The notes: generated by a model from the sequence alone, not told the origin. A DNA stretch of 64,000 nucleotides from an uncultured Gemmatimonadaceae bacterium (GCA_963740355.1 CAVUDW010000003.1:1152001-1216000), one strand, 5' to 3'. Positions 38,031 through 60,909 are shown, numbered from the stretch's first letter. A program made the numbers and translations.

Positions 38031-40088
38031 CTACTGGTCCGACCGCGCCGTGATCGACGTGATGGTGGTTCCGTCAGTCACCACCCGCACCAGATGTCCC
38101 GTCACCACATACACATAGGTGTCGCCATCGCGGTCCACAGCTCGGCCGAGGCGCGACAGGGCGCTGATGGGCTGCCCAGGGGTGACACCGGCCAGTGACC
38201 ACGGGCCGGATGACATGATGCCGACGATGCGCTGACCGCCAGCCGGGTCCGGCTCGACGAGGAAGGCCACACCGGCCTCGTCGCTCTGGATGGTCTGGCC
38301 GGCGCCCACGGCACCAGGCAGCACGGTGCGGGCGTCACGCGGACGCATGCCCGTGCCAACCTTCTTCAATCCATCAGGCGACACGAGCTGGATAGAGCGG
38401 AAGCCCAGGTTGCCGATCTTGCTGTTGGCGCCGGGTGACGGGGCCACCGGGCGCGGCGCCGTGGTCGGCGTCGTCGGGGATGCGGAACCGGCGGGCAGCG
38501 TGGTCGGCGTACCGGCGCGGGCGGCCATCACGACCCGCCCCGCTTCCTGTCCCCACGGCTGCTGGCCGTAGATGTCGCGGTAGGCGGTGAGCAACGTGAG
38601 GCCGGTGGTCTTGTCCTTCTCGAACACCGAGCGTGCGTAGTTGAAGCAGACGCGCGTGCTCATCGGCTTGGTCTTGTCGCTGAGACAGTTGGTGCGCCAG
38701 GCCGTCTCCGAGGGCTGCGTGTTGCCGCCGGTGAGGATACGACCGAACACCGCGCGTGCGGAGTCGAGCTGGCCAGCCTGGTAGTACGCGATGCCAAGTG
38801 TGTTGAGCACCGACGCATCGCCGCTCGCGAGTTGCACGGCACGCTTGGCACGGGTCAACGCACGCGCCGAGTTGCCGGTGTACGCATCGAGCAATGCGAG
38901 GTTCGACAGGCTTGCGGGTCGATTGTCCACATCGGGAATCGCTTCCAGTGCCGTTCGCGCACGCGCCAGCAGCGAAACGTCACCGGTGCTGTTGTCACCG
39001 CGCAGTCCTTCCACGAAGCGCGTGCGCACGACACCGACCGTCGGCCGCACACCGAGCGCCCCGACCGGCACCGTCGACAGCCACTGCGTGAGCAACGCTG
39101 CACCCATCGCTTCATCGATGAACGGAGCGCCCGGCAGCGCACGACGCACGGAGTCGAGCATCGCGATGCCGCGATCGACTTCGACGTTGGCGCTGATCAA
39201 GCCGATGGCGCTGTCGTAGCGATCCTGTTCCTCCAGCATGCTGGCCCAGAGCCGCATGTAGAGCGCCGCGCGACGCACGGCGGACGGATGCGTGCTCATC
39301 ACACGCTCGCCCCAGAAGGCGTTCTCGCCTGATGCACGCTCCTCGGCCGCATCCATTTCCCACAGGCGCACCAGTTCACCGGCGTCGCTGAAGACATTCG
39401 TCTTGCGGGTGGCGAACATGATGTAGGCGCCGAGTGAGTCGGCGGCGAGTTCCTTGCCCTGCGAATACGAACGGCAGGCCACCACACCTGGTGCGGCGAT
39501 GCGCGTGCCCTCGGCCCTGCTGGCGGTGACGTCACCACCGGCTGCGAGGTTGTTCGAGCCGCGGCAGTTCGTGTCCTGGGCATGTCGCAGGATGAGATGC
39601 GACATCTCGTGCGCGATCACCGTCGAGAGGAAGACATCGCTCAACTCGGCCGCATTGCGACCGGTGCGCGGTGCCGCCTGGGCTGCGCGGCGATCGAGTG
39701 CCTCGATCATGCCCGTGTAGACGACGATCAGGTGATAGCCGTTGGACGGCCAGCCGGTCGCGAAGGCGTTCTGCTCGTTCTTGTTGAGCACGAGGAACCG
39801 CGTGGACCCGCCGATGTCGCGTGCGGCAGCGGCGATCGGGCGAATGAGGCGGGCGACGCGCTGGAAGCGGGCCGTCGTCAGTTCGCAGTTTGGCTTCTGG
39901 AAATCTTCGTTTTCGCGCAGCATGGTTTTCACCTGCGCTTCGAAGGCACTCTTGACCGCCGTTTCCGGGATGGCGGGCGACGGGTCGCAGGGTGCCTGCG
40001 CGCCGGCGGTACGAGCAACACTGCTGCCGATCACGAGCGTCAGGGCGACGGCGGCGCGGCGGAGTCCTGGGGAGAGGATCGTATGCAT
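38031..40088 (-). CDS. Secreted M48 family zinc protease with TPR region and C-terminal beta domain
   Basis: Signal peptide ...TAGAQ; NAFA, HEMSH, ELAAD, STHP; TPR-like LNTLGIAYYQAGQLDSA. Confidence 0.85.
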   Translation of the reverse strand: MHTILSPGLRRAAVALTLVIGSSVARTAGAQAPCDPSPAIPETAVKSAFEAQVKTMLRENEDFQKPNCELTTARFQRVARLIRPIAAAARDIGGSTRFLVLNKNEQNAFATGWPSNGYHLIVVYTGMIEALDRRAAQAAPRTGRNAAELSDVFLSTVIAHEMSHLILRHAQDTNCRGSNNLAAGGDVTASRAEGTRIAAPGVVACRSYSQGKELAADSLGAYIMFATRKTNVFSDAGELVRLWEMDAAEERASGENAFWGERVMSTHPSAVRRAALYMRLWASMLEEQDRYDSAIGLISANVEVDRGIAMLDSVRRALPGAPFIDEAMGAALLTQWLSTVPVGALGVRPTVGVVRTRFVEGLRGDNSTGDVSLLARARTALEAIPDVDNRPASLSNLALLDAYTGNSARALTRAKRAVQLASGDASVLNTLGIAYYQAGQLDSARAVFGRILTGGNTQPSETAWRTNCLSDKTKPMSTRVCFNYARSVFEKDKTTGLTLLTAYRDIYGQQPWGQEAGRVVMAARAGTPTTLPAGSASPTTPTTAPRPVAPSPGANSKIGNLGFRSIQLVSPDGLKKVGTGMRPRDARTVLPGAVGAGQTIQSDEAGVAFLVEPDPAGGQRIVGIMSSGPWSLAGVTPGQPISALSRLGRAVDRDGDTYVYVVTGHLVRVVTDGTTITSITARSDQ

Positions 40089-40337
40089 GGGCGGAGATAT
40101 AGTCGTGGAGCGAGGTCGGCAGGCAGGAAACGGATGAACGCCTGTCGCTCCGGGCTTCGGTGGCGAGACGTCTGCCCTGATGGACACGTCACGACCGATT
40201 CCGTGTCCATTCCAGCAGGGTCACCCGAACGGGTCAATTGCCCCGGGGCGACCCCGACCGTATTGCTTCCCCAGCGCGCCCACCGGTCATGTTCTGACTT
40301 GCGGGTCGGCACCTCCCTTATCGAGCGCCAGACGCAC

Positions 40338-42780
40338 ATGTCCTCCACACGTTCTTCCTCCCCGCTCGCCCTCGCGGCGTTGGCTCGGGTTTCCGGATTC
40401 CGCCGCCTCGGTTCTGGGCTGTCGGCGTTGCTGCTCTGCGCGCTGCCGATGATGACGGCGACGCCGCTCGCGGCGCAGGTTCGGCGCGCCTTGATCGTGG
40501 GGGTGAACGACTACGAGGCCTTCATTCCCGCGACGGCCGTGCGAACCGCGGTGGCCAGCGCGGCACGCCGCACACCGGCGCCGACGACCGGCGCACGTGG
40601 GGTGAGCGCGCGCGGCACGATCAGCAATCTCGAAGGCTCGGCCAACGATGCGCAGGCGGTGGCGCAGGTGATCACGGCCCGCTTCGGCTTTCAGCGGCCG
40701 AACGTGCGCGTGCTGATCGACAAGGCTGCCACCCGACAGGCGATCATCGATTCACTGACCGCGATGCTCGGCCGATCCAAGCCCGGTGACATCGCGTTCT
40801 TCAGCTTTGCCGGCCACGGGGCGCTCCGTCGCAACACGCTCACCCCAGGCAAGCAGGTCGACCAGACGCTGGTGCCGGTGGATGCCAATGCCGGTGCTGA
40901 AGACATTCGCGACAAGGAACTGGCCGCCATCATCGCACCGGCGGCGGCGCGTGGTGTGGTGATCACGGTGGTCATCGATGCCTGCAATTCCGGCTCCATC
41001 ACGCGCGGTGGCGTGCCGCAGTTGTTGAAGGAACGCTGGGCGTCGATCGATGAGCGCGACAAGGCAGAGCGCTACACTGGGCAGTTCCCGGCCGACGTTG
41101 GTGCGCTGGTGATTTCCGCGGCTGAGGACACGCGTCCGGCCAAGGAAGGCATCGACGAGAACAACGTGCGGCATGGCTTGTTCACTTCGGCGTTTCTGCA
41201 TGCGCTGATGTCGAATTCGACCAACGCCTCCGCACGCCAGATCTTCCAGAGCACGAAGGCGATCATGCAGGGGCGTGCGCCGGATCAGGTGCCGTCGATC
41301 GACGCGCAGCAGGCGCGGTTGCGTCAGCCGCTGTTCGGTGGCGCGAGCGGCGATGCCGCAGTGCGCACCACGGTCGCGCTGACCGGTTTGCGCGGCGAGC
41401 AGGCCGAACTCGATGGCGGCCTCGCGCTTGGCCTGCGACCGGGCACTGAGCTGGCGCGCCTGGTGAATGGCAAGCTGGATACGACGATGGTGGTGAAGGT
41501 CGAGCGCAACACGAGCATCGCGCGCAGCCTGGCGTCGATTGTGCGCGGTAGTGAAGACTCGCTCAAGATCGGTGACCTGTATGCGATCACACGGTGGGTG
41601 GCGGCGGATGAACCACTGCTTCGCGTCTGGGTGCCGGCACCGTTGGCGACGGAAGCGGATCGCGATGCGGCCGTGGCTGAAGCCCGGATCCTGAAGGCCA
41701 GCACCGCGATCACATGGATCGATGATCCGACGAAGATGCCCGCCGGCAATGCACCGCTGGTGACCGTCGCGTTCGAGGGCGGTTGGTGGACGCTGCGCAC
41801 CGGTCGCGAACAGCCGGTGCAGATTGGCGCGACGCTCAAGGCAGCGCGCGTGCTTGTCTGCGATCAATCAGCTCGGCGTGGCAAAACCCGCAGTCTGGCT
41901 CTCGATTCCGCCGACACGGGCGCTGGACAATGCGCTGGCGATCGGCGGCACATCGCAGGCCGCCGGCATCACGCGGGAAGGGGCGCCGGAAGGCGGGTTC
42001 TACGTGCTCGCAGGCCGCGTGACCGACACCGATGTCTCGTATGCCTGGGTGCGAGCGAACGCCTCGGCCGCCGACAGCGCGACGAGCGCCTTCCCGGCAC
42101 GGAGCAACTGGTTCCCGATCAGTTCGGCCCCATCAGCCGCCGCGGCTGGTGACTCGCTGCGCATGCGTGCCGAGGCGCTGGGGCGGGTGCGGACCTGGCT
42201 GACGATCGCCACGCCCCCGGATGAGGGGCAGTTCCCGTATCGCCTTGTGGTCGTGGATAGCGTGAGCGGCAAGCCGATCACCACCGATTCGATCACCGCC
42301 GGCACCGTGATCCAACTCCGCCTCGATGCGGACACGGCGCGGATGGCTGCGGCGGCTACCCGGCAACCACGGTTCGTCTACGTCTTCGACATCGACAGCA
42401 AAGGCAAGGCGACGCTGCTCTTCCCGTCGGACGGCACCAATGCCACGAACCGGGTGCCCTACTTCATGGGCAACAAGGAAGTCTGGCCGGACGCGATCCC
42501 CGTCACCGATGGCGGCGGGCGCGTGGCGTCGTTCGGAGCCACCGATGTCGGCGTGGAGTCGTTGCTGCTGGTGACGTCGGAGCAGGAACTGCCGCGGGAT
42601 GTCTTCGAGTGGGACGCCGTGATCACGACCGAGATCACCCGAGGCGGCAACGAATCGCAGATCGGCGGGCTGTTGCGGAGCCGAATGGGGGCGTCCCGCG
42701 GCCTTGGCGCCCGGCCGGGGTCGGCACCGGCCACCTGGTCGCTGCAGCGTGTGCAGGTCCGGATCGTCCCCAGCCGGTAA
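40338..42780 (+). CDS. Secreted caspase-family (C14) protease with C-terminal DUF4384-like domain; +1 frameshift ~41855
   Basis: RALIVGVNDY, FSFAGHG (His), DACNSG (Cys), HGLFT; second frame FVYVFDIDSKGKATLLFP...GVESLLLV. Confidence 0.85.
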
Positions 42781-42934
42781 ACCTCGCGGCATCTTGACCG
42801 AGGTCGTGTTCAGTCGTCTTGCCGAAGGACAGATTGTGGACGGTATTGTGTCAGATCGAGGTGTTCGAGTCTGTGATCGAGTGTTCGTGCGTGTCACGTT
42901 GCCGGCGTTCAGTCACGCCACCGAGGACAGTTCC

Positions 42935-45028
42935 ATGAGCCGTACATCGCTGCGTCACCGGATGCGTCAGGCCGCTCAGCTCGCGCTGACGACCGCGCTG
43001 GCAGGGCTGCTGGTGTCACCACTGACCGCGCAGGGCACGCGACGAGGGTTGGAGCCACGATCCGCATCGGGCTCCGCTGGCGCGGGATTCGGCACCTATC
43101 ACGCGATCATCTTCGCCGTCGGTGAACAGCAGCCAAGCAGTGGGCTGCCGTCGCTGCGCTTCCCGATCAAGGAAGCCGACAGCCTGCGCGCCGTGATCAC
43201 GCGTGAGTACACGTTCGATCCGAAGAATGTGCAGGTCGTGAAGAACCCGACGCGCGAAGCGATCCTCGACTCACTCGAGGCCGTGGCGCGCCGTCTCGGG
43301 CCGGAAGACAACCTGCTGGTGGTGTACAGTGGGCATGGTGGTTTTGACGAAGCCGGTCGCGAGGGCTACTGGCTGGCGGCCGACGCGGCGAACGCACGCA
43401 AGAGCACCTGGATTCCCAACGAGTCGATCCGCACCTGGCTGCGCACGCTGAAGGCGCGCTCGGTGCTGCTGATCACCGATGCCTGCTTCAGCGGTTCACT
43501 CAATCGCAGCAATGATGATCGCGTGGTGCTGCCCGCCGATAACCAGCGGGCGATTGCCGGAGCGCTGATGTATGCGCGCCGCAGCAGTCGCCAGGCGATG
43601 ACGGCCGGGACCGCGAAGGAGACGGTGCCGCAGGTGAGCATCTTCTCGATGGAGATCATCGCCGCACTGAAGGCCCGGCGCGCACCGGTGTTCATGGCGC
43701 AACAGCTTGCCGGTGAGATCAATCCGCGAGTCGCCGCCGTCGCACACACCACACCGACGTTCAGCGCAGTCCCCGGCATCGAGAGTGACCAGGGCGACTT
43801 CGTATTCGTGCGTCGCACCACGCCGACCGATGGTGGCGTGGTGGGCATGGATGATGTGTCGCGCAACAACACGGTCGGTGCGGCCACGGTGGCGCAGGGT
43901 GCAGGCGGCGTGCAGCGCGGCGCGACCGGCGCGGGCAACAGCACACCGCAACGCAATGTGGGCGCAACAGCGCCGGTGACGCAGCCTGTCACGACGCCAC
44001 GGGCTTCCTCCGGCAGCGGCAGCGGCAGCGGCAGCAGCGACCCGGGATCGAAGATGGGCAACATCGGCACCGGTACGCCGAGTACGACAACCGCGCGACC
44101 GGACGCGGCGCGCGCCGCCGCGGGTATCGAGGCGGCGCCAGTGATCGCTGCACCAACCCGACCGGCATCGAAGGCCGCACCAGGCTGCGATGGTGGCGTT
44201 GCATCCGGCTGCATCACGCTGGCGCTGAACCTCGAGTATGGTCGCAACAGTGTCGCGAAGAACGTGCCGCGCGCGGTTGGGCTCTACCGACTGGCGTGTG
44301 ATGCGAAGGATGCCGACGGCTGCATGAATCTTGGCCGCATGTACGACTCGCCGCACGAAGGGGTGTCGATGGATCGCGGCAAGGCGCGTGCATTGTATGC
44401 GCAGGCCTGCGATGCCGGCTCCGGCGACGCGTGCACATTCCTCGGCCTTGCCGCGTCGAAGGGTGAGGGTGGCCCGGTCGACGATGCGAAGGCCGCAGTG
44501 CTCTGGGCGAAGGGCTGCGATGCGGGACACATGCAAGGCTGCGCGCTGCTGGGTGTCGCGTACGCCAACGGCAAGGGTGCACCGAAGAATGAAACTCGTG
44601 CAGCCCTGCTGCTCCAGCGTGCATGCGCTGCCAATGAAGCGGTGGGTTGCGCCGCACTCGGCACCATGACCGCTGGTGGCAAGGGCGGACTGACGCGTGA
44701 CTCGGTGAAGGCGATCGGCTACTGGCGCCAGGCCTGCACCGCACCCGTGAGCGTGGCGGAAGGCTGTGCCTACCTCGGCGCTGGTTATCTGCGCGGGTCA
44801 GGCGTGATGCGTGATGACGTGCGCGCCGGCCAGTACCTGAGCCAGGGATGCGAAGGCGGATTCGCCTTCGGCTGCTCCTCGTTGGCCAGCATGTACGAAG
44901 CCGGCACGTCAGTCACCGCCAAAAGCATCACGCGAGCGGCGGAGTTCTACAAGCGCGGCTGCGATGGTGGCGACCAGAAAGCCTGTGCGTGGGTTACCGC
45001 GAACCCGCAGCCGGCACCGAAGAAGTAG
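42935..45028 (+). CDS. Secreted caspase-family (C14) protease with Sel1-like repeats
   Basis: Signal peptide ...LTAQ; YSGHG, DACFSG, GDFVF; about six Cys-containing Sel1 repeats (AC.....GC..LG..Y..G). Confidence 0.9.
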   Translation: MSRTSLRHRMRQAAQLALTTALAGLLVSPLTAQGTRRGLEPRSASGSAGAGFGTYHAIIFAVGEQQPSSGLPSLRFPIKEADSLRAVITREYTFDPKNVQVVKNPTREAILDSLEAVARRLGPEDNLLVVYSGHGGFDEAGREGYWLAADAANARKSTWIPNESIRTWLRTLKARSVLLITDACFSGSLNRSNDDRVVLPADNQRAIAGALMYARRSSRQAMTAGTAKETVPQVSIFSMEIIAALKARRAPVFMAQQLAGEINPRVAAVAHTTPTFSAVPGIESDQGDFVFVRRTTPTDGGVVGMDDVSRNNTVGAATVAQGAGGVQRGATGAGNSTPQRNVGATAPVTQPVTTPRASSGSGSGSGSSDPGSKMGNIGTGTPSTTTARPDAARAAAGIEAAPVIAAPTRPASKAAPGCDGGVASGCITLALNLEYGRNSVAKNVPRAVGLYRLACDAKDADGCMNLGRMYDSPHEGVSMDRGKARALYAQACDAGSGDACTFLGLAASKGEGGPVDDAKAAVLWAKGCDAGHMQGCALLGVAYANGKGAPKNETRAALLLQRACAANEAVGCAALGTMTAGGKGGLTRDSVKAIGYWRQACTAPVSVAEGCAYLGAGYLRGSGVMRDDVRAGQYLSQGCEGGFAFGCSSLASMYEAGTSVTAKSITRAAEFYKRGCDGGDQKACAWVTANPQPAPKK

Positions 45029-45854
45029 GCATGGCCGTGGCAACGGATGACGCTCGCCGCACATTGCGCGCTGCGACGTCGTCCTGCCAGGGCTGCGCCA
45101 ATTCGCGCAACACCGACTTCGCCACCACCGGATGCATGGCACCGGTGCGCGACAACATGCGCGCGAGCAATGCGCTCATCACCGGCGCGGCATAGCTGCT
45201 GCCGGTGACGGTCTTGGTGCCGCCACCGATCCACGGTGCCTGCACCCCCTGCCCTCCCGTCGCGAACTCGACGAGGTGGCCCGGCAGGTGATGAAAGACG
45301 CCCGCAACCGTGCGAGCCATGTTCACGGCGACGACCGTCGGAAAGTGCGACGGCCATTCGCGTCGATCGATGTCGACGTTCGAGCAGGCGGAGACGACGT
45401 GCACGTGACGCAGGTAGGCCTCGTCGACCCAGTCCTTGAACGGCAGCACGAACGCCGCATCGCCGCGACAGCCGAAGCTGCAGTTCAGGATGTGATAGCC
45501 GCGTTCCATCGCCAGTCGAGCACCGGCGGCGATGATCACGCTGCGACTCGCGAGATCCGCACCCAGGACACGAAAACTCCCGATCTGCGCGGCAGGTGCA
45601 ATGTCGTGAATGATCCCCGCGATCGCGGTACCGTGCCCGTACGCATCTTCGCCCGCTCCATCGCTGACGCTGACCCTCGGCCCCTCGCCGACGAGGATCA
45701 CATCGTCCGCGAGCGTCAAGCCATGCAGTGCGGGATGCGACGATTCGATGCCGGTATCGAGGACTGCGACGCGTATTCCGGCGCCGTCGCCGTCACGCAA
45801 CGCGGCACGTGGGCCGTCGAGGCGCAGGACGGCATCCTCAGCGCGCTCAGGCAC
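44994..45854 (-). CDS. Minimal cytoplasmic S8 subtilase
   Basis: VAVLDTG (Asp), HGTAIAG (His), GSSYAAP (Ser); no signal peptide or propeptide. Confidence 0.88.
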   Translation of the reverse strand: MPERAEDAVLRLDGPRAALRDGDGAGIRVAVLDTGIESSHPALHGLTLADDVILVGEGPRVSVSDGAGEDAYGHGTAIAGIIHDIAPAAQIGSFRVLGADLASRSVIIAAGARLAMERGYHILNCSFGCRGDAAFVLPFKDWVDEAYLRHVHVVSACSNVDIDRREWPSHFPTVVAVNMARTVAGVFHHLPGHLVEFATGGQGVQAPWIGGGTKTVTGSSYAAPVMSALLARMLSRTGAMHPVVAKSVLRELAQPWQDDVAARNVRRASSVATAMPTSSVPAAGSR

Positions 45855-46425
45855 CCTGCAACCCCAGCACCGAGTCGAGCAGCGTGAGGTCGATCAGGCG
45901 ACCAGCCACGTTGACATCCCGTTCGAAGTTCTCGAGATCCGCGGGTGAAAATCCTGGCGCCGCCGCCCCACCGGCCAATTGCACGCAGGAAACGACACCG
46001 CGCACGCCGCCGGCAAACACCAGCGGTACCGCCATCATCGCGACCGTCTGCAGCCCCAGCATGGTGTCCAGCGTCGAGTCACGCATGGCATTGCTGGCGA
46101 CGTCGTTTTCGCAGAACGCCTGCTCGGTGACCGCCACCATCCCGATGATGCCACGATCCAGTGGCTGCTCGAAACGGTCCACCAGTGTCTGTGCATGCGG
46201 GCCGCTGTTAATTGCCGGCACGAGCGAGTTTCCGCGAACCAGCCAGAGCGTGCCTTCATGCGCGCCAGAACGGACGAAGGACGTGAGGATCACGTCGCGC
46301 GCGGTCGCGGCCTGAGCGCTGCGCAGCCAGGGGCCATCAATCAGTGCACCGTACTCCTGCAGGCGGCGCTGCAACAGCGGTGCGCTGGCCGACAGTTCGG
46401 GGTCTGGGCGAAATCGATTCGGCAT
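45847..46425 (-). CDS. Stand-alone GAF domain protein
   Basis: GIIGMVA.T......D, D..LG.QT.AMMAVPL, GVVSCV, GFSPADL. Confidence 0.82.
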   Translation of the reverse strand: MPNRFRPDPELSASAPLLQRRLQEYGALIDGPWLRSAQAATARDVILTSFVRSGAHEGTLWLVRGNSLVPAINSGPHAQTLVDRFEQPLDRGIIGMVAVTEQAFCENDVASNAMRDSTLDTMLGLQTVAMMAVPLVFAGGVRGVVSCVQLAGGAAAPGFSPADLENFERDVNVAGRLIDLTLLDSVLGLQGA

Positions 46426-46436
46426 CGTGGTCTCTA

Positions 46437-48248
46437 TCAGGGAGCGGAAATCTGGGCGCTGCGCAGGCGGAATGCCTGTACCGGTTGCGAGCGTCCACTG
46501 AGCGACAACTCGCCGAGGTCGTCCACGGCCGGTGGCTTGCCTCCCAACAACAGCATCGTCGCGCCGGAGACGATGATGCGACAACGCATTGGTGCGCCGG
46601 AATCGTCCGGCAAGTCCACCGATTGCAGGCGTGCGGCCACGTTCACGACGTCACCCACCACGGTGTACTTGAGTCGTGTCGCGCCACCGATGGTACCCGC
46701 GACGGCGACGCCGCTGTGGATTCCGATGCGCGCCTGTGTGCCCGCCTTGCCGATTGACGCAGGCAGCAGGCGTTCGATGGTGGCAGCCAGAACCACCGCA
46801 CAGTTCACGGCGTTCTCGGCGTCACGTTCGATGTCGCGCGTATCGCGACGTGGCACCGGCACGCCGAAATCCGCCTTGATGCCATCACCGGCGAAGTCGT
46901 CGACCAGCCCACCGAATGTGGCAATGTCGGCCGTGCAGGCAGCCGTGACGTCGGTGAGGAGTTGCATCACCTCACTAGCAACGTGGCTTTCACTGAAACG
47001 CGTGAAGCCGCGCAGGTCGACGAACAACACCGTGACAGGCAGCTGCAGAGGTGCCGGACGTCCCCCCTCCAGGTACAGATGTCGTTCGCTCCACGCCGCA
47101 GTCGCAAGTTCCGGGGTCACGAAGCGAGAGAAGAGGAGTGTGGTGAGCCGCTGGCGTCGGCGCACTTGCCAGAACGACACCGCCTCCACGCCAAGCAGTG
47201 CCGCCACCCAGACGAGGAGCGTCGAGCCAAGCGGGAGCCACATGCCAGAGCCATCGACCAGCCAGAGCACCAGCGCCGCTTGCAGGAGAATTCCACCGAC
47301 AGCAAGAACTGGCGTCACTCGAATGGACGTCAGCGCGGCGCCAACCGCGCCGATCAGGACCCAGCTCGCGAGCCAGAGCACGACCAATGGCCATGATGCG
47401 TCGCGCACTGCCTGCCGTTCACCACGGGCGATCTGTATTCGATCGTTGATGTCGTGCGCAAGGATCGCCAGTGCCGGCATGGCGCCGACGCTGGTGGGAA
47501 CGGTGCTGCCATCGTCGATGCCGAGCAGCGCCACGGTGCCTGTCACGCGCTGACGCAGCGTCGCGAGATCGAGCGCCAGCACACTGTCGATCGACATGGC
47601 ACGAATGCCGTACCAGTCGCTTCCGGCGTCAGCGAAGCGTAGTCGGAGCGGTCGGCTGTCAGCCGGCTCCTTCGTCACCGGTGCTCGAGCGAGTCGGGCT
47701 GCGACTTCGTCGTCGAGCCAGCGCTCGCCAGTCGCGGCACGAGGCATCGTCCGTACGACACCATCGGGGTCACGCAACAGCGCCGTGAGCCCGATGCGTG
47801 GGCCAGTGTTCCGTCGTACTCGCAGTGCCTCGGGCACGAACCACGGCCACGCCACCGAGTCACCCGCGAGCGTGACGCCGACGACGACTCGCGGCGATGT
47901 CGCCAGCAAGTCTGGCAGCGAGCCAGCCGGTGCCACCGGCACCGACATATCGATGGCGATCGCGGCCGACTGTGCGCCGGCGGAGTCGAGGCGAAGCACG
48001 GCATCGGACACCATCCAATCGCCGGTGCGCGATGCGGCACGCACAACGAGCAGTTGGGGCGTGACTGGGGTATCAGCCAGTGCAGTGGCCACACGATCCC
48101 AGGCGGCGCGATCGAGGGAATCGCGAAGGCGAAGTCCCGACACCACCCCAATCGCCACCAGTGCCGCGAGAATCCCACCAGCGATCGCGAGGCCCTGCGC
48201 GTCAAGGAAACGTTCCCGTGTCGACGGGGTGTCGATCACTGGCGGCAC
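46437..48248 (-). CDS. CHASE2 domain class III adenylate/guanylate cyclase
   Basis: TM, periplasmic domain with DPDGVVR, three TMs, then TVLFVDLRGFT, GDG, RIGIHSG, YTVVGDVVNVAARL. Confidence 0.88.
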   Translation of the reverse strand: MPPVIDTPSTRERFLDAQGLAIAGGILAALVAIGVVSGLRLRDSLDRAAWDRVATALADTPVTPQLLVVRAASRTGDWMVSDAVLRLDSAGAQSAAIAIDMSVPVAPAGSLPDLLATSPRVVVGVTLAGDSVAWPWFVPEALRVRRNTGPRIGLTALLRDPDGVVRTMPRAATGERWLDDEVAARLARAPVTKEPADSRPLRLRFADAGSDWYGIRAMSIDSVLALDLATLRQRVTGTVALLGIDDGSTVPTSVGAMPALAILAHDINDRIQIARGERQAVRDASWPLVVLWLASWVLIGAVGAALTSIRVTPVLAVGGILLQAALVLWLVDGSGMWLPLGSTLLVWVAALLGVEAVSFWQVRRRQRLTTLLFSRFVTPELATAAWSERHLYLEGGRPAPLQLPVTVLFVDLRGFTRFSESHVASEVMQLLTDVTAACTADIATFGGLVDDFAGDGIKADFGVPVPRRDTRDIERDAENAVNCAVVLAATIERLLPASIGKAGTQARIGIHSGVAVAGTIGGATRLKYTVVGDVVNVAARLQSVDLPDDSGAPMRCRIIVSGATMLLLGGKPPAVDDLGELSLSGRSQPVQAFRLRSAQISAP

Positions 48249-48315
48249 GGATGCATCATACGGAAGTCACGATTCACGACGCGTTGCGTACAGACAAGGG
48301 GTGGTGTTGCGCTTC

Positions 48316-49038
48316 ATGAGACTCTCGTTCGGTTTTCCGCCGGCAGTGCTGCTGGCCGCTCCAGTGTTGCTGGCGTTGCTGGGTACGCGCCTGCAGGGGC
48401 AGGATACCACCCGATCCGCACCGCCGCCGCCCGCCGCGTCGCGCATCGCGGCGCGTTTGCTGGTGGTGTTCCGGCCACCCGTGCGCGGGGTGCGCCGCGA
48501 ACGAGCGCTCACGCGCGGTGGTGACGGCGCTCGCGCCCTGATTCCCGACGCACGCGTGGACACACTGGTACCGCAGACGCTCCGCGACACGCCGCATGTC
48601 GCGGTCTGCGCCGCCGGCGAGCCCGACTCGGCCCGGCTCACGGTGCGCATCACCGACAGCACGACCTCCACATCCGCCGATGGCATCACCTACGGGGCGA
48701 CCAGCGGAACCAGTCGGAGCGTGATGATCGGCCTTCGCGCCGGACTCAATCGCATCCCGCTCGCCTCCACCGGCCTCACGCTCGCCGACGGCGCCCTTGC
48801 CGAGTGGTCGCTCAGCACACGCTCCGGCGAGGTGTTCCTGCAGGAGTTCATTCAGCGGCACGTCGTACGCAGCACGCCAACGATCAATGCGCTGGCCACC
48901 AACGGCATCTGGTACGATGCCCTCGACCTGTTCGTGGTTGACGCGCTGCGCGGCATTCCACTGGCGAGCGAACGCCTCGATGCGTTCCTGACCAGCGTGG
49001 GTGCGATGCCATGCGCCGAGCCACCCGCCAGGCCATAG
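48316..49038 (+). CDS. Secreted DUF928-like protein
   Basis: FRPPVRG...TRGG near the N-terminus and LATNGIWYDAL near the C-terminus (DUF928 hallmarks as I recall them); divergent from the CHASE2 cyclase. Confidence 0.7.
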   Translation: MRLSFGFPPAVLLAAPVLLALLGTRLQGQDTTRSAPPPPAASRIAARLLVVFRPPVRGVRRERALTRGGDGARALIPDARVDTLVPQTLRDTPHVAVCAAGEPDSARLTVRITDSTTSTSADGITYGATSGTSRSVMIGLRAGLNRIPLASTGLTLADGALAEWSLSTRSGEVFLQEFIQRHVVRSTPTINALATNGIWYDALDLFVVDALRGIPLASERLDAFLTSVGAMPCAEPPARP

Positions 49039-49072
49039 GGATCATAGGAATGCACATGGCACGCGGCTGAAG

Positions 49073-49111
49073 CACACGGGGGATGCGCCATGTCGGTGCA
49101 TCCCCCGTGTG
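49073..49111. terminator. Hairpin between convergent genes
   Basis: CACACGGGGGATGC / GCATCCCCCGTGTG. Confidence 0.7.
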
Positions 49112-49175
49112 TCTTGTGCGTTGGTTCCTTCACTCGTGCGCCGCCCGACGCCAGACTGCGCGCCGAGCGAGTGGC

Positions 49176-49646
49176 TCAGTTACGAACCGTCCAGCGGAAG
49201 CCAGACGTCGCGTCGCCAGTGACCGGGCCCCATGACGAGTAGCTGCCATCGGTGAACACGGCGCGCGCATACAAGCGATGATCGCCAGCGCCGTAGTAGC
49301 CGCAGGCATCGCCCCACGGCGACACGGTGCCGACGAAGTTGCCGTCGACGTAGATCTTCACATACAGGTCAACGCGGCTGTCGATGCAGATCTGGCCCGG
49401 CTCGACGGCTGATGCGCCGCGCGTGCTCTTGCCAGCGGGTTCCGGCGTGGCCGGCTTGTTGAGCGCGTTCGGCGCGTCGTCCTTGCGGACGTTGGCATCG
49501 GCGCTGCCGCCGCGGCTCTTGGTGCTGTTGGAGGTGGCGCCAGCCTGGCGCTTGGCGGCCTGTGCCTGCACGTCAGTGGCAACGAACATCGTTGCTGCGA
49601 CGAGGCCAAGTCCGAGGAGAGCGGCACGAATCGTGGGAGTACGCAT
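49176..49646 (-). CDS. Small secreted protein: polar linker + ~75-aa two-Cys beta domain
   Basis: Signal peptide ...VQAQ; linker with SRGG and STRG; C-terminal ICID..VKIYVDG.FVG.V..WG..C. Confidence 0.75.
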   Translation of the reverse strand: MRTPTIRAALLGLGLVAATMFVATDVQAQAAKRQAGATSNSTKSRGGSADANVRKDDAPNALNKPATPEPAGKSTRGASAVEPGQICIDSRVDLYVKIYVDGNFVGTVSPWGDACGYYGAGDHRLYARAVFTDGSYSSWGPVTGDATSGFRWTVRN

Positions 49647-56535: not shown

Positions 56536-59506
56536 ATGTCCGATCGTTCGAGGAGTATCGCGCGGGTGCAGTTCCTCGGGGCTCAGCGGATCGAGATCGG
56601 GAGCGACGAGGTGACCCCGGAAGCCGAGCGGCTGTTCGGCATGATCGTGCGCCTTAGCGTGCCGCTGGGGCGGATCACGTCACGGCAGACGATGATGGAC
56701 ACATTGTGGCCTGGCGCGGGCGATGCGAACGCGCGGCACAACCTTCGGCAGACGGTCTACAAGGCACGCGAGATTGGGCTGGTGGTGGAGTCAGGCGAGG
56801 ACGGCCTGCGGCTCGATCCCCGTCACTGGTCGTGCGACTGGGACGATCCAGTCGGCGACGTGGGTGGCGAGTGGCTGCCTAACTACGTGCCGGAGTTTTC
56901 CGAGGAGCTGGCGGCCTGGATCACGGCGCAGCGGGTGGGCGTGCACGCCCTGATCCGACCGCGGATCATCCGGTCGTTGCAGACGGCGCGTTCGGCCGGC
57001 GATCTGGCGATTGCGGATCGATATGCGGCGCAGCTGCTGCGGATCGACGAGTTGAACGAGGAGGCGACGCTCACGCGGGCGGAGTTGCTGGCGATGCAGG
57101 GCGCGAAGATCGACGCGCTTCGGCTACTGGATGCGTATCTGGCCGAGATCGGGCGTCTGGGGTCGGGCAAGGATGCGGCGTTGCCGGCGCAGTTGCTGCG
57201 GCGCCGGATCGCCGAGAAGCTGCCGACGGTGGCGTACCAGAGTGGCGCCAAGCATCACGGGCCGTTGGTCGGCCGGCAGCGCGAGTCGAAGAAGCTGTTG
57301 GCGGGGCTCTTCGATGCGCGGGCGGGGAGGGGCCAGGCTTTCCTGCTTCAGGGTGGTGATGGCAGCGGCAAGACGCGGCTGTTGTACGAGACGCGGAAGT
57401 CGGCGGCGTTGCAGGGGATGCAGGTGTTCGAGATGGCGTGTGACAGCACGCCGAGTGCGATGCCGTTTGCGGCGATGCGTTCGTTGGTGGCGCGGATGCT
57501 GACCTATCCGGGTGCGCTGGGTATCGCGCCGGAAGCGATGGGCGTGTTGCGGGCGTGGCTGTCGAGCAACGAGTTCGCACCGGACGATTGTCCGCTGGCC
57601 GAGATCGAGGACTTGCTGGCGTCGGTGTCGGAGGAGACGCCGTTGTTGTTGCTGGTGGAGCATGCGGAGCGCATCGATGCCGAGTCGTTGGGGCGGTTGG
57701 ACCGGGTGTATCGGAAGGGGGTGCTACGGCATCACATGATGGTGCTGACGACGTCGACGCAGGCGACGCCGACGGAGAGTCCGGTGGAGGTGCAGTGGGT
57801 GGAGCGGGTGGCGTTGCGGCCAATGTCGACAGTTGACGTTCGCGCGATTGTGTCCGCCTATGCCGCAGCCGAGCAACGTCGTGCGACTCAAGACGAAATC
57901 GCGTGCGCCGCCGTGTTCGCAGAGGGTGTTCCGATGTTTGGAATTGAAATGCTCGGGCTAATACTCGATTCTGGATCACCAGACCTTATTCCATGGCGCG
58001 TTCAAATCGCGGTCGATCGGTCGCTTCGAGAGCTGAATGAACTTCAGTGGCGCATACTCTCGCTCTGTAGCGCTCTCAGAAAGAGCGCTCGCCAAGCACT
58101 GGTAGCAGCGGCACTCCATCTGCAGGAGAACGAATTCGCTGCGGCTGCTTGATGGCCTCGAGGATCCCGGCTACCTGCAGTACGAAGACGGGATTTTGAA
58201 ATCTTACTTGGCTCATGGCAGACAAAGCCAGCGAACGAGTTCGCGCCAATGTACTACGGAGCGACGCTTTGTCAGCCGCGAATGAGATGTTGCGCGATGC
58301 GGCTGGATTCACGAATCCCGCAGATTTCTACACGTGCATTCGCCTTACTGTAGTGGCCGGTGAGGAGGGGCGGGCAAAGTTTCTCCTAGACTCGGAGGTT
58401 GGCGCGCTCGTGCGAAGGGACACCGCGCTGGAATCGTGTTTGAGCTGGGCCAGCTGCGAAAGCTAGCACAATCGCGCGCCTTTAGCGTTCTCGTTGATGA
58501 AGTAATTGCGCAGATCCGCGGAGGAGCCGAGAGCAAACGCCCTAGTCGGCGGGCGGCAAGCTACCGCTCCAAGCCTTCATCGCTACCATCGATATCTGAT
58601 GCGTCCGTTGAGGTAGAGTATACGCTGTCATCAACGCAGTCCCTGGTCGCCACACTCAGTGAGTCTCGAAATCCCAATTCTGCACCCGAGAGACGCCTTG
58701 CAGAGGCGGTGATGGCTCTCTTTGTGGCGTCGAATCTGGCGACAAAGCGGGCTGACGGCGTCCTTTCAGCCGTAAACGCGGTCAGGTATTCGAAGGATGT
58801 GAATCCATTTGACATACACCGGGCGGATCTGATTTTCTTCGCCTCAGTGGGGCTTCGAGAGAAAGCGCTAGAGGCCGCGCATCAACTATCCGCTAAGTCT
58901 CGTACCGTGCACGACGTTCAGCTGGCGTGCAAGGGACTGAGAAATGCGGCGGAGGTGCACTCGACTTTCGGCGATGAAAGGCAGCTCATTCGCTACTTCT
59001 TGAGTCGCGTAGCCTAGCGGCAACATTGAAGTATCACGCACAAATCGTGTGGGCCGACATCCGCCTTGCGGATCTCCGATTGGAAGCAATGGATCTTGAG
59101 GGGGCGAATGCTTATCTGACGAGTGCGATGATATCGTCGATAGCATACCGCCTATAGCACCGCTGCTCTCGCGGACCTCAATGTCGCAGACAGTGCTGGG
59201 AAGGTGCTAATGCGCGGCGCATCGGCCAGGCGACAGAAGGCCGCGCGAATTGTAGCAAGAACTCGGTGCACGCCTCTAGAACCGGCACTGCACTCTGGAC
59301 TCGTTCTCGGTGTCAGACTCGCGACACACGCAGGACCTTTCGCCAGAGACACAGCTCGGGACTATTCGTTGCTTAAGGAGAGTATTGCCAGCAGACCATT
59401 CTATCCGAACGAACAGTTGAGCCTCGCTGCGTTGGTGCTCTACAGAGCACTTCCGCGGGCACCAAGAAGTCTCAAAATTCGTGCGTGCGCAGCTTCCGCG
59501 CATTGA
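56536..59506 (+). CDS. BTAD/SARP-type regulator with AAA (STAND-like) ATPase; multiply frameshifted after ~58150; end uncertain
   Basis: LWP...ARHNLRQ..Y, L.IDELNEEA, LVGR..E, Walker A GGDGSGKT; continuing fragments at 58215, 58436 and 59204. Confidence 0.7.
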
Positions 59507-59601
59507 AAGCACCGGGAGGATCGCATTCTTGAGTTCTCCTTTCGCGGACGTAGAGAAAATGTCGCGAAAGACTCGCACCATAAAGCACCCCTATTTTGAC
59601 T

Positions 59602-60909
59602 CTATCCGTTTGCGAGCAGTGAAAGAGTTGGTTCTGCTGCAAAATCGTCCTCATGCGAAGCGCAGGCAAGCCTCAATACTGTGTCGATTGTTCCTGCAGC
59701 GAATAGCGTTGCCAACATCTCGGGATCAAACTGAATGCCACTCATCCGCAACATCTCTGCGCGAATCTTATCCGCTGCAAGGCCTCGACGGTACGGTCGG
59801 TCACTCGCCATGGCGTCGATCGTGTCTGCAATCGCAATGATCCGAGCAAACACTGGGGATTGCTTCACCCGCCAACGCATCTGGATAGCCAGAACCGTCC
59901 CATGCTTCGTGGTGATGCCGAATCGGATCTACCGTATCACGCAGGTGCGAAGAAATTCGAACGAGTTCGGCGCCCTTGATCGGATGCGACTCCATGATCG
60001 CGCGTTCTTCGGCTGTGAGCTTTCCCGGCTTCGCCAGAATCGGAGCGAACACTTCGTGAATCTTCCCTACATCGTGCAGAAGACCAGCCACTGCAAGCGT
60101 TCAACCTGCTTCGCCGAAAGCGAGAGTGCCTGACCCATCATCGTTGAATACTGCGAGACACGCCTAGAGTGACCCGAAGTATAGGGATCACGAGCTTCAA
60201 GCGTCGTAACGGTGAGCTCGAGAAGCTCTTTGTTCGAAACGTGCAGCTCTTCATTCGTGCTGTTCAGCTGACGAACGATTAGCACCAACGCCGCCGCAGC
60301 AGACGTCGCAAGCACGCCGAACTTCACGTACACCGTTACGAAGACGAAGACGAACGGCAAGGCAACGAGATCGAAGAAAAATCCACGCTGCCCTTCCTTC
60401 CAAATCGAAATGTATTTCGTCTGCGTCTCTGCGCTCACCACTGCTGCAACCGCAGCTGAATTGGTGAGGACGAAGGCTAGGAATGCAGCGAGTACCGAAA
60501 GTGGACGTATATCACCACCGTAAACAGCTCCCGCCGCACCCGTCAGCCGATAGGCTACGACGGAGAAGGAAAGTGTGACGGCATGCTGGGCAACGTTGAA
60601 AACAAGCTTTGCTGTCTCCTTCCGCATCAGCAGCTGTGCCAACAGAATGACACCTACGGCGCTGAGTACAGAGACCCAAGAAGGGACGAGAACGACACTG
60701 GCTAGGAACGTGACGAATGTTGCCTGGCCATTCACGCGATCGGACAGCGCGTACGGCATAAGAGCGCCAAAGACAGAAAACACCGCAAAGGCGATTGCGG
60801 CGTTGAGCTCGACTGGATCTACGCGTGGTTCGAAAGCGTAGAGAGCAACAAGACTCCCCGCTCCGACCAGCGCGGTCAGCGTTACTATCGTCTTCGTGGC
60901 CTTTCGCAA
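59602..60909 (-). CDS. Membrane-anchored HD-GYP c-di-GMP phosphodiesterase (~7 TM N-terminal sensor); frameshifts ~60088 and ~59855
   Basis: EARDPYTSGHS.RV / LLHDVGK...HHHEAWDGSGYP / ARIIAIAD..DAM.SDRPYR across three frames. Confidence 0.88.

Follow-up and report, generated by a model that had tools for sequence, protein, structure and literature searches.

Members of peptidase family C14 other than the caspases are described as preferring (PMC5756287, PMC7935541) or requiring (PMC5756287) a basic residue (Arg or Lys) at position P1, and the S1 pocket of metacaspase-like enzymes is described as acidic (PMC5756287). In caspases an autocatalytic cut falls in the linker between p20 and p10 (PMC5756287), and the validated sites of MALT1 in ZC3H12D and ZC3H12B read L-x-P-R↓G, where the arrow marks the cut (PMC9463181). 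MaOC1 of Microcystis aeruginosa, the one prokaryotic C14 enzyme given as biochemically characterised in a 2017 review (PMC5756287), depends on autoprocessing and cleaves its substrates behind basic residues (PMC5756287, PMC7935541). Bacterial orthocaspases are numerous, but hardly any physiological substrate is known, and these sources describe a single one, an antitoxin (PMC5756287, PMC7935541). Here we analysed 64,000 nucleotides (nt) from an uncultured Gemmatimonadaceae bacterium (GCA_963740355.1, CAVUDW010000003.1:1152001-1216000), the whole of which is called the window and to which all coordinates refer unless stated otherwise. In this window of 65% G+C, an island of nine genes at 38.0-49.7 kb encoded two putative secreted orthocaspases, caspase 1 and caspase 2, together with, among others, an M48 metallopeptidase, a DUF928-like protein and a small secreted protein. 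The initial annotation had read x-R-G motifs in the linkers of these secreted proteins as a caspase cleavage code shared by the whole island. The core of that observation was much better conserved than was apparent from the sequence alone, and the argument from motif frequency failed. Our comparisons supported purifying selection on a core subset of xRG motifs within variable or low-confidence segments, comprising four sites in the caspase-1 family, two in the small partner, two in caspase 2 and the leader of the DUF928-like protein. These Arg-Gly (RG) motifs are good candidates for cutting sites of the orthocaspases.

The caspase-1 family and its closest described relatives

Caspase 1 comprised a signal-like N-terminus, a C14 catalytic domain and middle beta domains (40338..41856, + strand; Pfam Peptidase_C14, E 1.4e-22), and continued in the +1 frame with a DUF4384-like domain and a flexible tail, as placed by alignment to single-frame orthologues (41857..42780, +). 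Caspase 2 (42935..45028, +) joined a signal-like N-terminus and a C14 domain to a hypervariable linker and Sel1 repeats (Pfam Peptidase_C14 and Sel1). Both proteins belonged to C14, scoring 80.9 and 40.6 bits, respectively, against PF00656 (cut-off 21.4), and their translations held the His and Cys motifs, AGHG and DACNSG in caspase 1 and SGHGG and DACFSG in caspase 2. In an alignment of 83 family members with roughly 30-40% identity to the reference (A3), which was also used for AlphaFold2, C169, D57 (of N-D) and D167 (of D-x-C) were invariant and H113 was at least 90% conserved. D57 and D167 are presumably S1-pocket residues, going by the TbMCA2 structure. Caspase 2 kept the Asp-x-Cys aspartate and, as judged by eye, had EAD at the place matching the N-D of caspase 1. 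From these motifs both caspases look like catalytically competent C14 proteins. DUF4384 scored 22.8 bits at the C-terminal domain in the window and 17.8 bits in the orthologue of one congener (genome G009), both below the family cut-off of 27.

Caspase 1 is a member of a widespread family of ~770-amino acid (aa) secreted C14 proteases that spans several phyla. A search of 1.84 billion representatives returned 13046 relatives at E<=0.001, and 128 of the best 150 were 650-900 aa long, with 36-54% identity over the catalytic domain. Scanning one genome per species located family members at at least 540 loci; 80 loci were kept, from Acidobacteriota, Gemmatimonadota, Bacteroidota, Ignavibacteria, Aminicenantes, Planctomycetes and others. 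Deep comparisons of the family used 129 sequences, including the intact protein of a congener as the alignment reference. The AlphaFold2 model of a family member (predicted local distance difference test, pLDDT, 88.3; predicted TM-score 0.88) had the caspase/haemoglobinase fold, its best Foldseek matches being metacaspases 9 and 4, GSU0716, MALT1, TbMCA2 and Yca1 (top-match probability 1.00).

Orthologues of caspase 1 occurred in 13 congeners (76-90% identity), and in the 12 whose locus reached the 3' end of the gene it was a single frame to the C-terminus. In the window, a single additional base near 41856 (CTT-G-TCT, 41850-41860) divides the gene between two frames. Among public sequencing runs, the best one contained a share of 0.30 of the sampled words, and 41836-41931 was not covered by the contigs of 4 runs. 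The additional base may be an assembly error or mark a pseudogene. Outside the window, genome G000 carried a tandem pair of further C14 genes (contig C3:2056125-2058088), 30-37% identical to the catalytic domain of caspase 1, and similar tandem pairs occurred in several congeners.

Compared with described systems, the caspase-1 family shares with MaOC1 that it is bacterial, belongs to C14 and has a His/Cys dyad. MaOC1 differs in consisting of a p20 domain only, in preferring basic clusters and in having an intracellular antitoxin as its known substrate, whereas the caspase-1 family members are ~770 aa long, begin with a signal-like segment, add beta domains and a DUF4384-like domain to the catalytic part, carry single Arg-Gly sites and have a dedicated small secreted neighbour. 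MALT1 is likewise a C14 enzyme with Arg at P1 and an Arg↓Gly motif, and MALT1 chains were among the Foldseek matches; it is, however, a signalling protease of the eukaryotic cytosol that contains death and Ig domains and whose kinship to caspase 1 lies in the C14 fold only, and its P2 residue is Pro or Ser, compared with mostly Thr, Ser or Gln in the caspase-1 system. Neither caspase was a MALT1-type paracaspase, as Pfam found only C14 with either sub-threshold DUF4384 or Sel1. Beyond the C14 fold, the resemblance to MALT1 is limited to the Arg↓Gly motif. The best structural and sequence matches to caspase 1 were the plant metacaspases AtMC4 and AtMC9, type II enzymes that, like animal caspases, are activated by a cut in the loop or linker past the catalytic Cys. 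Solved metacaspases aligned with caspase 1 by sequence but had no RG after the Cys. AtMC4 reads DSCHSGGLID at this place, whereas the caspase-1 family has a conserved Arg at Cys+7; the cut sites of plant type II metacaspases lie tens of residues further downstream of the catalytic Cys. The closest solved bacterial chain was GSU0716 of Geobacter sulfurreducens (PDB 3bij; target-normalised TM-score 0.70-0.72, sequence E 1.2e-08), which differs in being a 285-aa single-domain protein for which neither a function nor a partner or cleavage motif has been described. A limited literature search, covering its sources in part, found no description of the caspase-1 family, its partner or the motif.

Arg-Gly sites and their conservation

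Every motif listed in the initial annotation was found in the translations where it had been placed, including those of caspase 1, although the extra base near 41856 puts its C-terminal ones out of frame with the catalytic domain. In the AlphaFold2 model, the four family-wide Arg-Gly sites of caspase 1 appear to sit in flexible or lower-confidence segments. Site 1 (A-R-G, 40608..40616, +; VSARG, Arg codon 40611) closed a hypervariable insert of variable length (pLDDT 65-79) just upstream of TISNLEGSxND, which we take to be the S1-pocket Asp region; across the family the insert ended right before W.NL.G..ND. Its RG was invariant in 12 congeners, and in the deep family 122 of 124 sequences had an Arg among the 12 aa that precede L.G..ND, and 56 of 124 had RG. 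Site 2 (T-R-G-G, 41001..41012, +) placed its Arg at catalytic Cys+7, in a loop that presumably corresponds to the caspase intersubunit loop. In the deep family (C.SG...RG), Arg occupied Cys+7 in 125 of 126 sequences and RG was present in 118, and R176 and G177 were at least 90% conserved in A3.

The other two sites bracketed a short helix in the C-terminal tail. Site 3 (T-R-G-G, 42637..42648, +; ITRGG, Arg 42640), at the start of the tail, had an invariant RGG in 12 congeners with variable P2 and P3, and its deep-family consensus, GVRxRG / GV.TRG, lay immediately past the last folded domain. Site 4 (S-R-G, 42694..42702, +; ASRG, Arg 42697) lay ~12 residues upstream of a conserved C-terminal strand, P..WS[IL].R. 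Its Arg was invariant in the genus and its Gly was kept in 7 of 12 congeners; in the deep family (G..TRG), 79 of 104 sequences had RG, and all 104 an Arg, among the 16 aa that precede this anchor, and R740 was at least 90% conserved in A3. The 80-residue tails of the family held a mean of 1.74 RG, compared with 0.62 in shuffles, and among the xRG words counted Thr was the most frequent residue at P2 (98 words). In the model, pLDDT fell below 50 only at residues 172-177 (GSITRG, site 2) and 721-746, the latter holding both tail sites.

The small secreted partner (49176..49646, - strand), ~140 aa long in the family, consisted of a signal-like N-terminus, a ~60-aa tail and a ~75-aa Cys-containing beta domain, and no Pfam or NCBIfam family covered it; 36 close homologues were found. 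Searching the 80 distant caspase-1-family loci by tblastn with the island's proteins, we found a partner homologue in 30 at E<=1e-5 and in 35 at E<=1e-3, and in 32 of the 66 loci that had both flanks. Thirty-three of the 35 partners lay within ~460 nt of the caspase gene, 30 of those on the same strand. The small protein is the usual gene neighbour of the caspase-1 family across phyla, which fits the proposal that the island encodes both enzyme and substrate. The same survey found M48 at 3 of the 80 loci and DUF928-like, CHASE2, S8 and GAF genes at none, so a single code for the whole island overreaches. The code is better narrowed to the caspase-1 family, its small partner and probably caspase 2; support for extending it to M48 or to the DUF928-like protein is weak.

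The tail of the partner family kept exactly two [ST]RG sites. Motif A (S-R-G-G, 49506..49517, -; KSRGG, Arg 49514) followed the family pattern [ST]RG..D.NIK, and motif B (T-R-G, 49416..49424, -; STRG, Arg 49421) the pattern K.[STPE]RG just upstream of the beta domain. Among 23 close relatives, R45 and G46 of motif A and R76 of motif B were invariant and G77 was at least 90% conserved. Of the deep homologues, 27 of 32 had RG among the 10 aa that precede NIK, and 33 of 35 had it at a distance of 6-26 aa before the domain anchor. Across 36 distinct partners, the only tail columns conserved at 80% or more were the RG of motif A, NI, D and the RG of motif B, and each tail held 1.94 RG on average, compared with 0.22 in shuffles. 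The tails were rich in Lys (289 Lys, 96 Arg), yet Gly came next after 68 of the 96 Arg and only 19 of the 289 Lys, and the lower-G+C Bacteroidota tails kept both RG sites with Lys nearly everywhere else. The stretch between the two sites (49425-49505, -) was itself conserved across phyla (D.NIK ... P-[TN]-D), which suggests a separate role for this peptide, whether it is excised or bound. A simple basic-residue linker does not explain the D.NIK stretch together with the strict use of Arg over Lys.

For caspase 2 we found 44 homologues and compared 36 relatives with an extractable linker. R-R-G (RRGLE, 43040..43048, +; GTRRG, Arg 43043) stood shortly past the signal-like segment, with a flank identity of 0.45, and [RQ]RG[LI][ED] occurred near the N-terminus in 35 of 36 relatives. 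The linker held Q-R-G (43913..43921, +; VQRG, Arg 43916), conserved at 1.00 for Arg and 0.92 for Gly with a flank identity of only 0.24-0.28 (12 congeners), and [VMILTA][QR]RG, as G-V-[QR]-R-G, was kept in 33 of 36 family linkers that were otherwise hypervariable. A second conserved island in the linker read S-K-M-G-N-I-G (44048..44068, +), and 32 of 36 relatives had a K-x-G-N-like word. As a separate observation, the end of the M48 linker (about 38420-38440, -) carried SKIGNLG, the same S-K-[ILM]-G-N-[IL]-G word as the caspase 2 linker. This word was kept in 10 of 10 M48 orthologues, and it occurred four times in 4061 predicted proteins, two of these in the island.

Twelve congener stretches were aligned for comparison within the genus. 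Both residues were kept (each at least 0.9, in up to 12 congeners) in 12 of 21 RG dipeptides, compared with 6.4 expected from flank-matched dipeptides (P=0.006) and a kept fraction of 32% among all 2584 dipeptides. In poorly conserved surroundings (flank identity <0.65), RG was kept in 4 of 5 cases, compared with 7 of 51 for Arg followed by a residue other than Gly (Fisher p=0.004). When variable stretches were scanned without bias for islands of conservation, RRGLE, G.QRG and K.GN emerged in caspase 2. Conservation in orthologues, proposed by the initial annotation as a check of the code, held for the core subset but not for the first GARG of caspase 1 (Arg codon 40596, +), IVRG or two of the three M48 RGs, none of which was conserved among the congeners. 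The decisive support for conservation came from the deep homologues.

Enrichment over background, the check it named first, did not appear for RG. Genome-wide gene calls by a home-made codon model gave 4061 proteins (1.51 M residues), in which RG was slightly under-represented (observed/expected 0.89). In low-hydrophobicity segments of the island's five secreted proteins, RG occurred 17 times against 12.9 expected (p=0.16; p=0.33 when composition was shuffled within segments). The enrichment of [TSAVQ]RG in the same segments was marginal (11 against 4.7-4.9 expected, p about 0.01) for a class defined after the fact, and [ST]RGG, also a post hoc motif, had 4 occurrences where 0.15-0.21 were expected (p about 2e-5 to 7e-5). 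Genome-wide, [ST]RGG was present as 81 words in predicted proteins and one in the uncalled C-terminal piece of caspase 1. The heuristic for disorder flagged about half of the Ala-rich proteome (772081 of ~1.51 M residues) and is a weak stand-in for a real predictor. A DNA-level repeat behind the TRGG words was considered and rejected, as the copies used different codons.

Cutting, binding or chance

Read together, these comparisons present the core xRG motifs as short linear motifs under selection, which would most likely serve as [ST/Q]-Arg↓Gly recognition and cleavage sites of an Arg-specific secreted orthocaspase. We postulate that caspase 1 would mature by cutting itself at some or all of its Arg-Gly sites and would cut the tail of its partner at both sites. 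The two partner cuts would release two products with an N-terminal Gly, the beta domain and the conserved peptide of ~30 residues. A motif of this kind also follows the signal-like segment of caspase 2 and recurs in its linker, and caspase 2 may thus be a substrate of itself or of caspase 1. To the specific claim that [ST/Q]-Arg↓Gly is the recognition site, with caspase 1 cutting itself there and its partner's tail twice, we give about an even chance. Where the initial annotation had R↓G as the shared processing site, its conservation in the caspase-1 family, the partner and caspase 2 stands, and cleavage itself is plausible. If this is true, it would define a large cross-phylum family of secreted orthocaspases with a candidate recognition motif, [ST]-Arg↓Gly, strictly Arg over Lys, and with a neighbouring gene for a dedicated protein that is its candidate substrate or regulator. 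The Arg↓Gly specificity known from MALT1 would then have a bacterial counterpart, and the question of what bacterial caspase homologues cut would become testable at defined sites.

Several points weigh against cutting at these sites. Cleavage is predicted and the cutting enzyme is putative, and we know of no described metacaspase or orthocaspase specificity that includes a near-invariant Gly after the Arg. Raw RG enrichment had to be given up as support, because the frequency was at background, an outcome the initial annotation had itself named as counting against the code. N53, between the two partner sites, is invariant, and a plain linker would not need such conservation. Instead of being cut, site 2 could have a structural role or form part of an active-site loop. 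Low pLDDT is no proof of accessibility. Since the congener genomes are kin, genus-level tests overstate significance, and in the same alignment Arg was the third best conserved residue of these proteins (0.86) and RL and LR matched RG in conservation. Caspase 1 is frameshifted in this very genome, and gene calls, disorder and signal-peptide assignments were home-made heuristics.

The alternative that survives best is that the RG motifs are bound and not cut, acting as pseudosubstrate, latch or docking elements. The Arg residues of the post-Cys loop and of the tail would then occupy the enzyme's own acidic S1 pocket and keep the caspase inactive, and the small partner would act as a dedicated inhibitor or chaperone, blocking the active site with its tail. 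This alternative draws on the same data for conservation and flexibility, and the conserved D.NIK between the partner sites suggests a binding surface more than a disposable linker. In the structure of plant metacaspase 4, which is among the Foldseek hits, a linker residue reportedly occupies the active site and inhibits the enzyme; the abstract on it speaks only of the Ca2+-dependent mechanism of activation. On the other hand, two sites in each partner tail and four in each enzyme are more than a single latch would need. A complex prediction with the G009 caspase-1 orthologue (767 aa) and partner residues 31-157 yielded no structural evidence for docking; with a score of 0.00 twice and no controls, it counts neither for nor against binding. 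Pseudosubstrates of Arg-specific proteases are usually still cut at some rate, and binding therefore overlaps with cutting as an explanation. Overall, we consider binding without cutting rather unlikely.

Cleavage could also be part of something larger, namely a widespread extracellular module for pro-peptide maturation in which the self-freed orthocaspase excises the ~30-residue peptide (G..D.NIK...K.[ST]R) from its small neighbour as a signal or effector, and in which the CHASE2-cyclase/DUF928-like cassette inserted in this genus could be the receiver. We regard this elaboration as improbable. Less probable still is that the motifs share no function and combine chance from composition (65% G+C) with unrelated conserved structural turns, such as Arg-Gly hinges. 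RG frequency at background, the lack of conservation of several listed motifs, the general conservation of Arg and a motif class picked after seeing the data all fit such an account. It is at odds with the Bacteroidota partner tails that keep both RG sites amid Lys, with Gly after 68 of 96 Arg but 19 of 289 Lys in the partner tails, with the ~9-fold (partner tails) and 2.8-fold (enzyme tails) excess of RG over shuffles, with conserved islands in linkers whose flank identity is 0.24-0.28, and with the position of the sites in low-confidence model segments outside the folded core. Least probable is processing by another protease (M48, S8 or a housekeeping periplasmic Arg-specific enzyme) with the caspases as substrates only, since the motifs persist at distant loci that have M48 in 3 of 80 and S8 in 0 of 80 cases, the S8 subtilase is without a signal-like N-terminus and the caspase itself has what we take to be Arg-type pocket residues, even though the island encodes four peptidases and an M48 orthologue stands beside caspase 1 in each of the 10 congener stretches that extend to this side of the gene.

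M48, the DUF928-like protein and the rest of the locus

The secreted M48 metallopeptidase (38031..40088, -; Pfam Peptidase_M48, E 1.3e-14) carried TPR repeats, which Pfam also matched, and a variable Pro/Thr/Ser linker. It belonged to its family by score (PF01435, 54.9 bits against a cut-off of 20.3), and its translation contained HEMSH, an HExxH zinc motif. Its GLRG (38997..39008, -; Arg at 39002) was invariant in 10 orthologues; it sits inside a generally conserved block, FVEGLRGDN (flank identity 0.80), and is therefore uninformative.

The DUF928-like secreted protein (48319..49038, +) matched Pfam DUF928 below threshold only, with 12.8 bits against a cut-off of 26 for PF06051 and alignment restricted to profile positions 133-151. 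DUF928 was the only recurring Pfam match in its protein family: 26 of 33 members matched it at E<=1, the best at 0.0012 and none above the cut-off, and the nearest ESM Atlas clusters were cyanobacterial DUF928 at 0.88. We treat the name as a lead and not as membership. In cyanobacteria, genes for the secreted DUF928 proteins are said to adjoin a CHASE2 sensor, as the gene here does; the neighbourhood differs in that the adjoining protease is S8 and not a CHAT protein. The N-terminal leader held V-R-G ... L-T-R-G-G (48481..48522, +; VRG at 48484, LTRGG at 48514), and the family alignment (A1, 33 sequences, 50-100% identity) kept FRPP.RG.RRER.LTR(G)GDG.RAL.P, with G58, R61 and R73 invariant, R57 and R67 at 90% or more, and the residue after R67 varying between Gly, Ser, Ala and Asp. 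In its AlphaFold2 model, pLDDT was <50 at residues 39-53 and 57-69. The link of both this protein and M48 to the caspases is weak.

Three further genes lay between caspase 2 and the DUF928-like gene and were assigned by Pfam to an S8 subtilase (44994-45854, -), a GAF protein (45847-46425, -) and a CHASE2 adenylate/guanylate cyclase (46437-48239, -). These three always occurred together with the DUF928-like gene, in this genome and in 5 of 11 informative congeners; they were absent from three congeners in which the small gene directly followed caspase 2, and from three in which neither was found. The genes from S8 to DUF928-like (44994-49038) behave like one inserted cassette that separates caspase 2 from the small gene. 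Caspase 2 (+) and the S8 gene (-) are convergent, with an overlap of ~35 bases at their 3' ends (44994-45028). Further along the window, between 58152 and 60067, the home-made gene caller gave no gene and there was no tRNA or Rfam match; G+C at 58001-60000 was 0.56, compared with ~0.65 elsewhere, directly past a strong GC-skew peak at 56-58 kb.

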